DNA of 64,000 bases, taken from NCBI RefSeq assembly GCF_044324785.1, contig NZ_CP172127.1; one strand, written 5' to 3'. Source of the DNA: Escherichia coli (GTDB taxonomy: Bacteria > Pseudomonadota > Gammaproteobacteria > Enterobacterales > Enterobacteriaceae). The notes beneath the pieces were generated by a model, which saw nothing but the letters and a program-made list of their open reading frames with translations, did no database searches and was not told where the DNA came from. Positions within the stretch are counted from its first letter, which is position 1. The number at the start of each line of letters is the position of its first letter. The translations under genes and the position numbers were made by a program. Shown here piece after piece: positions 8,101 through 41,270 of the stretch.

Positions 8101-8365
8101 GTGCCGCCGTTCTGTCAGAAGAACCCTGCCTTGTCGTTGATGTACTCCGCGTGAGTCTGGATATCACGCAGGCATTTGCTCACACCGACGATGTAGCAGA
8201 ACATGGTGGTCAGCTCCGCCGCCGCGCCCGATACGTCGTGCCCGTCGTCCTGTAACTGGTTCAGCAGATTCATCAGCAGTGAGTGCTCCGTCAGGCCGAG
8301 AACACCAGACGGCGAGTGAATCAGGCTGCGGTAGCCGGGCTTCAGTGGGGCACTGTATTCTTTTT
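8101..8365. repeat. ~265-bp direct repeat, copy 1 (antirepressor C-terminal coding region plus ~14 bp 3' flank)
   Basis: About 97% identical to 41007-41270 by visual alignment (five mismatches noted). Confidence 0.85.
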
Positions 8366-8765
8366 TGTCTTCCAGCTTGATCGCCTCCATAATGGCGGGC
8401 ATGAAGCCTGACAAGACCTTCTCCACTTTTGTTTCTTGTTGTCTTAAACGTTTCTCGCATTCAATGAAGTAGCGTCGTACCTGACGACCTTTTTCATTAC
8501 GCTCGACCATCGCCAGCTCTTTGGCTGTATCGAGGGTGAGGTGGTAGTCTTTTGCAGGACGGCCTCTGCCTATTTTTTCCCGAACTTGGGAAATAATCAT
8601 AAAGTCTTGATTTTCAACGAAACCATATTCAGCAATTCGTTCGACAATCCACGAAGCAAATCGCTTACCCACATCGAGGAAAGTGTGTAAATCACGGGCA
8701 TTAACGAGAAGAGCGGTTTCGTTGGATAGAGTGCCGTTGAATACGGGGATGAGTTGACTGGTCAT
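8115..8765 (-). CDS. antirepressor-like protein (N-terminal Ant/Rha-type domain plus shared C-terminal domain)
   Basis: 216 aa; the C-terminal ~90 aa is near-identical to the C-terminus of the 41021-41713 protein and homologous to the 42024-42299 protein. Confidence 0.65.
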   Translation of the reverse strand: MTSQLIPVFNGTLSNETALLVNARDLHTFLDVGKRFASWIVERIAEYGFVENQDFMIISQVREKIGRGRPAKDYHLTLDTAKELAMVERNEKGRQVRRYFIECEKRLRQQETKVEKVLSGFMPAIMEAIKLEDKKEYSAPLKPGYRSLIHSPSGVLGLTEHSLLMNLLNQLQDDGHDVSGAAAELTTMFCYIVGVSKCLRDIQTHAEYINDKAGFF

Positions 8766-9089
8766 GATGACCTCCTGTTTGTTTTTAGTTACGAAAACCA
8801 GTTAGTAGCTGGTGATCGGGTGTCAACTAGAGCACAAACAGTAGCTCCGGGCATATTCCCCTTTCGGGTGTTGTATTACGCCTCTCCACCCGACCTTTGT
8901 ACGGATGTGACTATGCCAGATTGCAGGCATAAAAAAGCCGCAAAGCTATCGGGTGCGGATGACCGCTGTTTGTTTTCTAGTGCGGTCAGTATGCGATAGC
9001 TCTGGCGGCATTGTCAAATCATGCGCCATTGAGTCCAGCAATCTCTGCAATACCAATAGCGAGATAATCGCGATTCGTCAGGCGTGATT

Positions 9090-9338
9090 TTATTGCATAT
9101 GTCTTAGCTCCACTGAAGTTTTGATTTTATATGGGTTGCCTTTTACCTCAATAACACGATGAGGATCATTTTTTAGTTCTTCCGCAATCTTCCGTAATTT
9201 TCTAACAGCTGAACTGCGGTGTTTATAACGGTAAGTTACAGTTTCTTTTCTGTGCAATACCTCATCATTGTGGAACTTAGTCAAAACCATGACGACTTCA
9301 AACCTGACGCCGTTGTGTGCAACCATAATCTGCTTCAT
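9090..9338 (-). CDS. hypothetical small protein (82 aa)
   Basis: Start chosen at the internal ATG (MKQIMVAHNG...) because it forms an ATGA overlap with the stop of the upstream methylase gene (+ strand tcat at 9335-9338). Confidence 0.4.
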   Translation of the reverse strand: MKQIMVAHNGVRFEVVMVLTKFHNDEVLHRKETVTYRYKHRSSAVRKLRKIAEELKNDPHRVIEVKGNPYKIKTSVELRHMQ

Positions 9339-9985
9339 GCTGCACGCTCCCGTCCCTGGTTGTCTGTTGGTGACAGCGGAGCATTGCTGAATGCATTTGT
9401 TAATCCGCCAATATCCAACGCGTATCCGGGGTGTAGTTGCACTGCCGGGTCTTCGCACTGATTACCCCAAACATCGAAGCCATGAGACGTCTGGCGGGCG
9501 AACAGTTCAATGCGAGAAACATCGCCTAACAATTGCACAAGTTTTTCACGAACGACATCTGGTTTTCTTGAATGCTCAAGCCGCGGTGCGGTAAATGACT
9601 GAACGATCCCTGCATTAATGCGCGGAGGTAGTTTTCCCTTAACTGCAAACAGGCAATCTTCACTATTGGCGCGAGTCATGTGTCCCATACCCATAACCAG
9701 TTTATCTGGTTGTCGACTACCACATTTTATCCACGTGAAGCCCTTCATGGTCATCAGACGGAACCCCCAGGCTTCAACAACTTTTAGTGCTTCGAGTGGT
9801 TGTGTTGGCACCCACCACATGGCCAACAGACAGTTTTCATCGGCCAAATCCCACACAGGAAGGCGGCAGATATCCATCACACTCATAACCGGATATTTAA
9901 AACCGGCACCGCGATTACCATCTGCGGCTTTGTCCCGGTATACCCAGGGTGGATCTGCATAGATTAGTGTGTATTTCTTAGTCAT
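9335..9985 (-). CDS. DNA N6-adenine methyltransferase, MT-A70 family (orphan)
   Basis: N-terminus MTKKYTLIYADPPWVY carries the DPPW catalytic motif; 216 aa; no adjacent restriction endonuclease. Confidence 0.8.
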   Translation of the reverse strand: MTKKYTLIYADPPWVYRDKAADGNRGAGFKYPVMSVMDICRLPVWDLADENCLLAMWWVPTQPLEALKVVEAWGFRLMTMKGFTWIKCGSRQPDKLVMGMGHMTRANSEDCLFAVKGKLPPRINAGIVQSFTAPRLEHSRKPDVVREKLVQLLGDVSRIELFARQTSHGFDVWGNQCEDPAVQLHPGYALDIGGLTNAFSNAPLSPTDNQGRERAA

Positions 9986-10386
9986 AAACCACCCCGCAAC
10001 ATCCTATACCGCTATAGTCTCCACGGCGAAGGCCGTTACCTTTTGTGATACATTGGTCCCTGCGAACCGCGATCCTTGCACGCTCAACATCACCAGAAGC
10101 AACATCCATACACTGAAGCCAAAGGTGAGCGGCAATGCGGAACTGCCCTTTTTTCTCTCTTTCAATCGCGCGTTTTTCGATCTCTATCGCCGCAGGAGTA
10201 ACGGCGACAATCTTTGACGGACTGCGCATTGAAACCTTATTCATGTGATATTTTTCAAGTCGGCTTAACTTTCTCACTTAATCCAACCCTCTCTGAAAAT
10301 TAATGCCAGCAGATAAAGCCATGCTGAAACAGAGGCCAGGAATAAGTACCATCCTGACCATTTGATCCAGTGCCTTAGCAGCGCAC

Positions 10387-10635
10387 TCATGCAGCGTTGC
10401 TCACGGGACGATATACACGTTGCTGAACAGGAGGTTTTTTACCCTGGAACTCTGCCGGGCTTGCTGCCTGACGTTCATCAAGCCAACGCTCAACTTCATC
10501 ACGGTTCCATGCGCAGCGTTTATCGGTGATATACCAGCGTTTAGGAAATTCCCCTGCGCGCTCCATACGGTCGATAGTGCTCCATGACAGTGGCACCACC
10601 GCCAGGAGTTCTTTCTTACCTAATGCACCTTTCAT
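10387..10635 (-). CDS. AlpA-family DNA-binding protein (possible excisionase/regulator)
   Basis: 82 aa; LSWSTIDRMERAGEFPKR...WNRDEVERWLDER resembles the AlpA/Xis winged-helix family. Confidence 0.7.
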   Translation of the reverse strand: MKGALGKKELLAVVPLSWSTIDRMERAGEFPKRWYITDKRCAWNRDEVERWLDERQAASPAEFQGKKPPVQQRVYRPVSNAA

Positions 10636-10684
10636 GAATACCTCTCTTGGTTGCAGTGCGGCGCACGTGGCGCCGCGGTGGTGG

Positions 10685-40271: not shown

Positions 40272-40293
40272 CAAAAAAGCCCGCAGCGCGGGC
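40272..40293 (-). terminator. rho-independent terminator of the two-gene moron operon
   Basis: Minus-strand GCCCGC-GCT-GCGGGC followed by TTTTTTGT; overlaps the stop of the 146-aa gene. Confidence 0.65.
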
Positions 40294-40733
40294 TATTCTT
40301 CTTCATCATTAAAAAGCGGATTGTTGTTTCCATCTGATGAAAGGAAAGGTATGTGTTCTCTTGAAAATCCAACAATGACAATTTCATTATCATTTTTTGC
40401 ATAATGAATGCATTCATTAGAATGCCTTCCGCCAGGGTTGAAATTTAAGTTAATGGTATAATTCTTAAATGTGTTTGGATACCATGTTGGCCCACAATGA
40501 TAATGCCAATAATTCTCTTGCTCATAATTGTCTGAGCCGGGAATTTTATCATGGTTATCATCAACCCACGAGGGCTTGTTTTTTCCAACAAGCGCCCTTC
40601 CATTGGCAACATCCTCTAAAAAACTTTGTATGATTTTTATTTCATCATCAGTAAGGAAAGGTCCGTCTACAGCGAAAGGGGTGTTGCTTTCCCCATGTAG
40701 AAAACTATTAGATATTCTAATGTTAAACTTCAA
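40293..40733 (-). CDS. hypothetical moron protein (~146 aa from a TTG start), low GC, no recognisable family
   Basis: The track ORF (40293-40874) has no internal Met and its ATG overlaps the upstream small gene; GGAG-N6-TTG at 40733 fits better. Sequence MKFNIRISNSFLHGESNTPFAVDGPF...WHYHCGPTWYPNTF...NECIHYAKNDNEIVIVGF...PLFNDEEE. Confidence 0.45.
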   Translation of the reverse strand: MKFNIRISNSFLHGESNTPFAVDGPFLTDDEIKIIQSFLEDVANGRALVGKNKPSWVDDNHDKIPGSDNYEQENYWHYHCGPTWYPNTFKNYTINLNFNPGGRHSNECIHYAKNDNEIVIVGFSREHIPFLSSDGNNNPLFNDEEE

Positions 40734-40753
40734 GGAAAACTCCTGATGTGCTT

Positions 40754-40921
40754 CTATTTGGAGCGAAATGCCGCCTTGAAGTCGCTGAAAGATGTTCCTG
40801 TCTGGTAAACCATATCCTTGTCGCGCTCTTTGCTTGCGCGGCCAAGCATAACTTTTCCAATGACATCCCAGCATTGCTTGGCTTGTTCATTGTGCTGAGT
40901 ACGATTTTTCAACGCTGTCAT
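40754..40921 (-). CDS. hypothetical small basic protein (55 aa), first gene of the moron operon
   Basis: AGGAGG-N6-ATG; MTALKNRTQHNEQAKQCWDVIGKVMLGRASKERDKDMVYQTGTSFSDFKAAFRSK; not in the track; hand-translated and frame-checked codon by codon. Confidence 0.4.
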   Translation of the reverse strand: MTALKNRTQHNEQAKQCWDVIGKVMLGRASKERDKDMVYQTGTSFSDFKAAFRSK

Positions 40922-40933
40922 ATCGCGCCTCCT

Positions 40934-40950
40934 TTACCTTTAAGGTAATA
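40934..40950. promoter_or_regulatory. operator-like palindrome TTACCTTTAAGGTAATA overlapping the -10 of the moron promoter
   Basis: Minus-strand promoter candidate TTGCAG (40971-40976) -N17- TACTAT (40948-40953); the palindrome spans the -10 and the transcription start. Confidence 0.5.
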
Positions 40951-41006
40951 GTACGCTATTCACCCACAGTCTGCAATCTGTACAGAATTATTTAAAGGCA
41001 CATCCC

Positions 41007-41270
41007 TGTGCCACCGCCCGTCAGAAGAACCCTGCTTTGTCGTTGATGTACTCCGCGTGCGTCTGGATATCACGCAGGCATTTGCTCACACCGACGATGT
41101 AGCAGAACATGGTGGTCAGCTCCGCCGCCGCGCCCGATACGTCGTGCCCGTCTTCCTGTAACTGGTTCAGCAGATTCATCAGCAGTGAGTTCTCCGTCAG
41201 GCCGAGAACACCAGACGGCGAATGAATCAGGCTGCGGTAGCCGGGCTTCAGCGGGGCGCTGTAGGTTTTG
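41007..41270. repeat. ~265-bp direct repeat, copy 2
   Basis: About 97% identical to 8101-8365. Confidence 0.85.

Follow-up and report, generated by a model that had tools for sequence, protein, structure and literature searches.

A near-identical repeat in a phiV10-like Escherichia coli prophage corresponds to an SPC32H Ant-type domain carried on antirepressor genes with apparently different controls

The Rep-Ant antirepression system of phage SPC32H, reportedly described by Kim and Ryu in 2013 and by Kim and colleagues in 2016 (PDB 5D4Z/5D50), is one of the closest known relatives of the locus considered here. In it, a tetramer of the stand-alone Ant protein breaks up the DNA-binding tetramer of the repressor, Rep. 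Also relevant are the immI regions of P1 and P7 (c4-icd-ant) and of P22 (mnt-arc-sar-ant), as well as the isrK-orf45-anrP region of Gifsy-1, where Hershko-Shalev and colleagues are said to have found, in 2016, that ant translation depends on an interplay between RNAs. In addition, Iyer and colleagues reportedly described, in 2002, the shuffling of Bro-N, KilA-N, and AntA domains among phage regulators, in which N-terminal domains of a generic kind are found with a variety of C-terminal ones. Here we analyze a window of 64,000 nucleotides (64 kb) of the E. coli contig NZ_CP172127.1 (RefSeq assembly GCF_044324785.1), which contains a prophage with two near-identical direct repeats, each forming the 3′ end of an antirepressor gene. 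The arrangement is ordinary phage domain shuffling, of an already known kind, around an SPC32H-type Ant domain. Our preferred reading, to which we assign a probability of roughly 0.7, is that the repeat is a portable “warhead” cassette, comprising an ~80-residue SPC32H-Ant domain and the start of a terminator-like hairpin, that has been joined to generic modules, with one C-domain allele that matches the Rep of the phage group.

Both copies lie within a 40.7-kb prophage that spans 6641-47387 and is inserted at the 3′ end of guaA, with yfgI on the other flank. The structural genes are 97-98% identical to those of phiv142-3, HEMP4, phiV10, and TL-2011b (Uetakevirus, i.e., epsilon15-like podoviruses), and by homology the element is a phiV10-like (Uetakevirus) E. 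coli prophage. A search of the whole window for repeat families of at least 40 nt returned a single family, 8114-8370 and 41020-41276, in direct orientation and 32,906 bp apart, with 245 of 257 positions identical (95.3%). If one 1-nt indel is allowed, the match reaches left to 8091/40998, for a total of ~280 bp; if the ragged ends are excluded, a 244-bp core (8114-8357) remains, with seven differences (97.1% identity), five of them synonymous and two conservative non-synonymous (H to N and D to E). The blocks of perfect identity between the copies are ~92, 37, 30, and 29 bp long. Copy A (8091-8370, minus strand) comprises the 3′ 243 nt (last 81 codons) of an AntA-type antirepressor gene and ~22 nt past the stop codon, and copy B (40998-41276, minus strand) comprises the same parts of a Bro-N-type antirepressor gene. 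The GC (guanine plus cytosine) content of the cassette is 59-60% (59% in copy A and 60% in copy B), as compared with 45-46% for the N-terminal parts of the genes (46% for the rest of the AntA-type gene) and 48.7% for the whole prophage. The two proteins have no significant similarity outside the last ~95 residues (BLASTP). The initial annotation had described direct repeats of ~265 bp and ~97% identity, formed by the C-terminal coding region and 3′ flank of two antirepressor genes whose N-termini are unrelated (AntA and Bro-N domains, as it turns out), and this description is borne out. The flank of copy B, and of copy B only, can be folded into a GC-rich hairpin (GGCACA-GGGA-TGTGCC, 6 bp) that is followed by a T/A-rich tail. 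A terminator scan did not call the 3′ flank of the repeat as an intrinsic terminator, and the hairpin of copy B may, at best, be described as terminator-like.

The AntA-type gene (here antA; 8115-8765, minus strand) encodes a 216-aa protein with a Pfam AntA domain at residues 21-90 and homology to SPC32H Ant at residues 135-211. It matches PHROG 377 over its full length and PHROG 450 through its C-domain. The Bro-N-type gene (antB; 41021-41713, minus strand) encodes 230 aa when read from the ATG at 41713, which has a Shine-Dalgarno sequence, although the open reading frame (ORF) stays open back to a TTG at 41758. Its product has a Bro-N domain at residues 16-106 (Pfam, E 4e-13) and, over its last 77 residues, homology to SPC32H Ant. 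No Pfam model and no NCBIfam model matched the shared C-terminal part. Among PDB sequences, the shared C-domains of the two proteins match 5D50 chain E (SPC32H Ant) with E values of 1.8e-13 (antA) and 9.8e-14 (antB) over residues 3-79/86, and both match PHROG 450, the small Ant family (“unknown function” in PHROGs), at ~1e-36. The prophage also has a stand-alone, small ant gene (42024-42281, minus strand), the product of which (85 aa) is an ortholog of SPC32H Ant (E 5.4e-47, 88% identity). This small Ant is a third paralog of the repeated domain, ~40% identical to the fused C-domain, and its gene is the one that had initially been listed simply as SOS-regulated. The presumed target is encoded at 12989-13573 (minus strand) and is a full-length homolog of SPC32H Rep (5D50_A, E 4e-42); the protein is 100% identical to the repressors of ZX5, phiV10, and phiv142-3. 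Because of the homology to the Ant of 5D50, the presence of a Rep homolog, and the small Ant paralog, the repeat can be assigned, by homology, to the effector domain of a known antirepression system, encoded three times in this prophage.

The resemblance to SPC32H extends beyond the domain. The prophage belongs to the same phage group (epsilon15/phiV10-like) and has a Rep homolog, a small Ant ortholog at 88% identity, and a repeated domain of the same family. Further, the small ant gene has the same location, upstream of and divergent from the tailspike gene, and has a LexA box. Unlike SPC32H, in which only the stand-alone form occurs, two more copies of the domain are here fused to AntA and Bro-N domains and appear to be controlled by antisense RNAs rather than by LexA. 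In a tblastn search of 50,697 phage records, the domain was found in 32 and Rep homologs in 37, and all 32 records with the domain also have Rep. Identities to the window Rep and to the fused C-domain, respectively, are 99% and 97% in HEMP4, 78% and 79% in Enterobacter phage Tyrion, and 45% and 54% in Klebsiella phage Kp4865-1; by this comparison, divergence of the fused C-domain keeps pace with that of Rep. (Likewise, the small Ant and Rep diverge together in Tyrion and the Klebsiella phage.) Tetrameric SPC32H Ant binds two Rep dimers (PMC9638917). By these relationships, the fused C-domain would physically bind the Rep of this prophage. ZX5 ORF4 is a Bro-N protein with this cassette, and its overexpression was reported to lower the prophage titer from 1e9 to 1e6, while overexpression of ZX5 Rep abolished free phage (PMC9782041).

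The cassette occurs in many combinations. We compared eight related loci (TL-2011b, phiv142-3, HEMP4, and five E. coli chromosomes), and in all eight the cassette has the same 3′ boundary and is carried on AntA, Bro-N, or P22_AR_N-type N-domains. There are two alleles of the AntA-type N-domain (88% alike), the Bro-N alleles are 79-84% alike, and the P22_AR_N-type genes, seen in TL-2011b and in locus L008, are in inverted orientation beside an Arc-like gene. TL-2011b has no ant gene next to int. In relatives without antA, matches end exactly at the stop codon of int, and the antA module must therefore start no more than 10 nt from int. More broadly, the 244-bp core was found in 467 of 5,426 complete E. 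coli genomes (8.6%), in 579 places, with one to three copies per genome and almost always at 95-99% identity. Annotations of the genes that hold it read Bro-N, AntA/AntB, Ant, or ORF6N. When 1.84 billion representative proteins were searched exhaustively, only 35 clusters of the domain were obtained, which include stand-alone forms (~85-110 aa) and C-terminal fusions (130-319 aa); a homolog search with the 82-aa domain retrieved only 20 short proteins. Salmonella members, including SPC32H, have the stand-alone gene only, in one place per genome.

The N-terminal modules, in turn, occur with other C-domains. Stx (Shiga toxin)-converting lambdoid phages have the AntA N-domain and its upstream small RNA at ~84% DNA identity, and the protein of Stx phage PA4 (L009) is ~85% identical over residues 1-108, after which the C-part is unrelated and gives no match to 5D50. 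By sequence, then, the same AntA front end bears a different C-domain in a phage group that has a different repressor. This is the pattern of Bro-N/KilA-N/AntA shuffling, with four N-domain types on one C-domain in the present group and the same N-domain with another C-domain in Stx phages. Unlike in the general cases, the C-domain can here be assigned to a structurally characterized, repressor-specific antirepressor family. The initial annotation had offered module acquisition as one of two possible sources of the identity, and this was the right kind of explanation.

Several variants of the cassette were encountered along the way. Two stand-alone E. coli proteins of 95-97 aa (P0001 and P0002) are 96-98% identical to the fused-type C-domain, and not to the small Ant; either they come from fusion genes that have been truncated, or the cassette also exists in a free form. 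In E. coli E57 (L006), there are AntA-type ant genes at both sites (1503-2311 and 33445-34127), so that the direct repeat there extends over the entire gene, at 88% identity over ~690 bp and 95% within the cassette; even so, this prophage is intact. In phiV10 (DQ126339.2, 19554-19783), the cassette is in two pieces at 91% DNA identity, annotated as “Bro-N domain-containing protein” and “hypothetical protein”, and the fused ant gene of that phage may be disrupted.

The three genes with an Ant domain have three different apparent controls, because a LexA box is present at the small ant gene only and the fused genes have separate antisense RNAs. The box, CTGTATAAATATACAG (42303-42318), is perfect and is located 21 nt upstream of the small ant ATG. 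With up to one mismatch allowed, no LexA-like box was found near antA or the isrK/C4 promoters, so the box of the small ant gene is the only one near any of the ant genes. Upstream of antB, and 48 nt from its ATG, is a C4 antisense RNA (41762-41849, minus strand; Rfam RF01695), which scores 78.6 bits against a gathering score of 45. The C4 loop CCTTTGTAG (41805-41797) is complementary over 9 nt to CTACAAAGG at the antB ribosome-binding site (41730-41722), and a second element, AGACCAA (41790-41784), is complementary over 7 nt to TTGGTCT (41758-41752) in the leader, which extends from 41761 to 41714. Farther upstream is an isrK RNA (41868-41944, minus strand; Rfam RF01394, 74.7 bits, above the gathering score) that has its own terminator and bears copies of both C4 targets, TTGGTCT at 41919-41913 and CTACAGAGG at 41903-41895. 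Because it carries both target sequences, isrK is most simply read as the a1/b1 decoy of a P1-type immI module. Across seven phiV10-like loci, the sites in isrK, C4, and the ant leader co-vary, with at least three specificity alleles. At element a, CTACAAAGG/CCTTTGTAG changes to CTAAGTGG/CCACTTAG or to an allele that is 1 nt shorter, and at element b, TTGGTCT/AGACCAA changes to TTGGCGT/ACGCCAA.

As in the immI regions of P1 and P7, C4 is on the same strand as, and directly upstream of, ant; it has two antisense elements, against the leader and the ribosome-binding site; there are upstream decoys in an a1b1 - a2b2 - a3b3 layout; and specificities co-vary among relatives, as they do between P1 and P7. 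Unlike in P1, there is no icd-like ORF between C4 and the start of antB (the gap is 48 nt), the C-domain is unrelated to P1 Ant1/2, the module is downstream of a LexA-controlled gene, and a second module makes use of sRNA-Xcc1 instead of C4. Gifsy-1 likewise has an isrK with its own terminator upstream of an antirepressor gene. Here, in contrast to Gifsy-1, isrK is directly followed by C4 and carries both C4 targets, which leads to a simple decoy reading, and no equivalent of orf45 was seen. P22 provides the precedent for the position, as its immI occupies the interval from the ejection genes to the tailspike gene, where copy B and the Bro-N-Ant gene are found here, and constitutes a second immunity region that acts through an antirepressor. 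The relatives TL-2011b and L008 have an Arc-like gene and a P22_AR_N-type Ant that bears this C-cassette. The differences from P22 are that the C-terminal domain is not P22_AR_C and that control here is apparently by c4-type RNA, as opposed to Mnt and Arc.

The second module has the same logic. Directly upstream of antA is sRNA-Xcc1 (8806-8895, minus strand; Rfam RF02221), which scores 64.8 bits against a gathering score of 53. Abutting the antA Shine-Dalgarno sequence is ACAAACAG (8782-8775), for which the second hairpin of this RNA has a complementary loop, CTGTTTGT (8841-8834). Upstream of this RNA, a short unit at 8929-9017 (minus strand) has a promoter-like site (-35 TTGACA at 9017-9012 and -10 CATACT at 8993-8988) and contains the target ACAAACAG again (8973-8966), together with a hairpin that has a T-run (8958-8931); it is a candidate decoy (“a1”) RNA. 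In L006, L007, and L008, the loop, the target, and the decoy have all switched to CTTTGAAG (loop) and CTTCAAAG (target), within surroundings that are ~98% identical (four loci compared). In these respects, sRNA-Xcc1 behaves like a P1 c4-type antisense RNA for antA. It also precedes the AntA antirepressor gene of Stx phage PA4 (L009). Rfam describes sRNA-Xcc1 as an integron-borne, trans-acting small RNA, and the literature that we found treats its target as unknown.

If the preferred reading is correct, the two copies would be near-identical because both fused genes were built from a regulatory RNA and an N-domain joined to one Rep-matched C-domain allele, and that allele would circulate in the phiV10-like gene pool at 1-3% divergence, like the backbone genes. 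The domain is present in three forms: a stand-alone form under a LexA box, a Bro-N fusion behind isrK/C4, and an AntA fusion behind sRNA-Xcc1 beside int. In a lysogen, LexA would silence the small ant gene and the two c4-type RNAs would block translation of the fused genes; from the complementarities, we infer that each antisense RNA keeps its own ant gene translationally off. Upon SOS induction, Rep would be inactivated by the small Ant and possibly also by the Bro-N fusion, since transcription from the LexA-controlled promoter might continue through the isrK terminator into the Bro-N gene. The fused proteins would be made, and would deliver the Rep-directed domain, when the phage infects a cell in which the resident has a different RNA specificity or when a decoy titrates the antisense RNA. 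A broader version, which we put forward tentatively and at somewhat below even odds, is that a Rep-specific warhead has been plugged onto AntA, Bro-N, P22_AR_N, and ORF6N modules, so that Rep is wired to three triggers (LexA with the small Ant, and two RNA locks of the immI type that differ in specificity) in a tripartite immunity/anti-immunity system, in which sRNA-Xcc1 serves AntA/ORF6N antirepressor genes as a cis-encoded immunity RNA of the c4 type. The AntA and Bro-N modules examined would each be gated by their own antisense RNA; the P22_AR_N-type gene of TL-2011b and L008 instead adjoins an Arc-like repressor gene.

Several observations weigh against the cassette reading. The ZX5 ORF4 result came from an overexpressed glutathione S-transferase (GST) fusion (PMC9782041). 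The fused C-domain is just ~40% identical to the small Ant, which is the form that has been characterized. Moreover, the small Ant is 88% identical to SPC32H Ant, yet the Reps are only 42% identical (53% in the N-domain and 39% in the C-domain; SPC32H is L011 in our comparison). Ant-Rep co-evolution is therefore not simple, and either Ant class may be the principal partner of this Rep. Either Ant contacts a conserved surface of Rep, or the small ant gene and the tailspike-proximal region moved between Salmonella and E. coli independently of Rep. Finally, the cassette core does not form locus-specific clades, which suggests occasional exchange between the loci during the history of the group, perhaps by older gene conversion. 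The mismatch between small Ant and Rep also gives some weight to the idea that the shared C-domain is chiefly an oligomerization module, through which the fused proteins assemble among themselves or enter the small Ant tetramer and modulate or poison it, without contacting Rep. SPC32H Ant is a homotetramer, and with three paralogs of one oligomeric domain in a cell, hetero-oligomers are plausible. Nevertheless, overexpression of the ZX5 Bro-N fusion drives the phage toward lysis, as expected of an antirepressor and not of an antirepressor inhibitor, the fused C-domain co-diverges with Rep in Tyrion and the Klebsiella phage, and an identity of ~40% between the fused and small forms makes mixed tetramers uncertain, so we judge this idea unlikely. 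As for the near-identity of the copies, it is virtually inconceivable that the repeat is a collapsed or duplicated read. A sequence or assembly artifact was rejected, given that the same two-copy arrangement occurs in L003, L004, L006, L007, and L008, which are independent complete genomes and a virion-derived phage genome; these assemblies (at least five) come from varied countries and hosts, and each has copy-specific substitutions. A recent gene conversion, in which one ant copy overwrote the 3′ end of the other in this prophage, was the other source of identity that the initial annotation proposed. It would fit the abrupt end of the repeat, as identity falls sharply from 97% to ~65% at 8358/41264 (with weak homology for ~40 nt more), which is the signature of a recombination joint, and the lack of locus-specific clades implies that copies were exchanged between loci at some time. 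However, all relatives share this joint, which is therefore old and is located at the domain linker. Mean differences per 244-nt core are 7.5 between copies A and B within a genome (n=6), 7.0 between A and B of different genomes (n=50), 6.0 between A copies, and 7.6 between B copies. In the window, copy A differs at seven core sites from its own copy B and at one from copy A of L003 and of L005, and copy B is closest to copy B of TL-2011b (two differences). Because two copies from one genome resemble each other no more closely than copies from different genomes do, there is no sign of recent homogenization here, and on these distance matrices recent intragenomic conversion was rejected; we regard it as very improbable. 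The backbone genes (Rep, int, portal, and capsid) differ by 1-3% among the same genomes, and the cassette is a single allele pool at backbone-level divergence.

The remaining alternative gives the repeats a different role, as primarily a substrate for recombination by which RecA or RecET-like enzymes delete the intervening 32.9 kb and leave a 7.8-kb remnant with int, the Bro-N ant gene, the small ant gene, the tailspike gene, and the lysis genes. Formally, the repeats are fit for homologous recombination, being direct and sharing uninterrupted identity over stretches of 92, 37, 30, and 29 bp, which exceed the minimal processing segment for this process in E. coli (~25-30 bp). The prophage itself encodes a RecT-like annealing protein (10685-11566, minus strand) and an exonuclease VIII/RecE-like nuclease (11563-12384, minus strand), both identified from the annotation of orthologs, and these could recombine the repeats in addition to host RecA. 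The product layout predicted by the initial annotation is correct as geometry. We searched the 5,426 complete E. coli genomes with a synthetic junction, made by joining int and copy A (6831-8370) to 41277-42476, as a comparison for remnants, and found no contiguous match. Although 563 genomes match parts of the junction, none reaches 80% coverage, and the highest value, 57%, is the intact int-antA arrangement. The repeat itself offers no unique exact pattern, and the adjoining Bro-N alleles are only 79-84% alike, so that scans of other species or metagenomes would be insensitive. This arrangement occurs in ~22 genomes, most of which also have copy B, and those sampled keep both copies across differing tailspikes, hosts, and continents, and in the packaged HEMP4 genome; the A copies of these lineages differ by up to 12 nt. 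For the phage, both the 7.8-kb remnant and the 32.9-kb circle, which would lack int, the tailspike gene, and the lysis genes, would be dead ends. Lambdoid prophage rearrangements in O157 likewise involve direct repeats, longer than the minimal homology length, within a mobile element, but unlike in those cases no recombinant was seen among the genomes searched here. The proposed 33-kb deletion consequently has no support; it is plausible as a rare event, being mechanistically possible, and improbable as the main significance of the repeats. The sole relative without the Bro-N gene, E. coli A3176 (L005), lost it by another, local deletion and not by recombination between the repeats. There (13400-14100), the isrK-C4-Bro-N-ant segment and the downstream small ORFs are missing, the small ant gene abuts the ORF after the ejection genes, IS3 and IS200 insertions are present beside attR, and the structural genes are all kept; the loss of the immI-like module is thus local.

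Several features of the genetic setting should be recorded. The prophage is bounded by identical 17-bp att cores, ATTGAGTGGGAATGATT, at 6624-6640 (attL, overlapping the 3′ end of guaA) and 47371-47387 (attR), and this core is identical to that reported for phiV10, epsilon15, and ZX5 (PMC9782041). The tyrosine integrase gene, int, is at 6831-8081 (plus strand) and is directly followed by copy A. A tRNA-Arg gene (anticodon TCT; 23032-23108, minus strand) lies between the large terminase and portal genes and is kept in all relatives examined. The interval from the last ejection-protein gene to the Bro-N ant gene (39520-40990) is a variable accessory region. In the window, it contains a membrane-protein ORF (39651-40007, plus strand), a small signal-peptide ORF (~40039-40200, minus strand), and a low-GC ORF (36-39%; 40293-40874, minus strand), a match to PHROG 5954 (unknown function), after which comes a bidirectional terminator (40278-40294). 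PADLOC gave no defense-system matches for the neighboring low-GC ORFs. In relatives, the cargo of this region is a YafO toxin gene (TL-2011b), the Arc and P22-type Ant genes (L008), or nothing (L005).

The repeat itself matters little, as near-identical modules are commonplace in mosaic phages and the deletion was not seen in the natural E. coli genomes searched. What is gained is mainly annotation, in that a domain for which there is no Pfam or NCBIfam model (PHROG 450) can be assigned to the structurally characterized SPC32H Ant family, and this would explain the target of many E. coli “Bro-N / AntA antirepressors” in phiV10-like prophages. The locus also provides a clean natural example of how an antirepressor may be assembled from a regulatory RNA, a generic N-domain, and a repressor-specific C-domain. 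The most useful by-product is probably the indication that sRNA-Xcc1 acts as a c4-type immunity RNA. If the model with three inputs to Rep is true, it would be relevant to cross-talk in prophage induction and to superinfection anti-immunity in E. coli polylysogens, among them Shiga toxin-producing E. coli (STEC) that have both phiV10-like prophages and Stx prophages with the same AntA/sRNA-Xcc1 front end.

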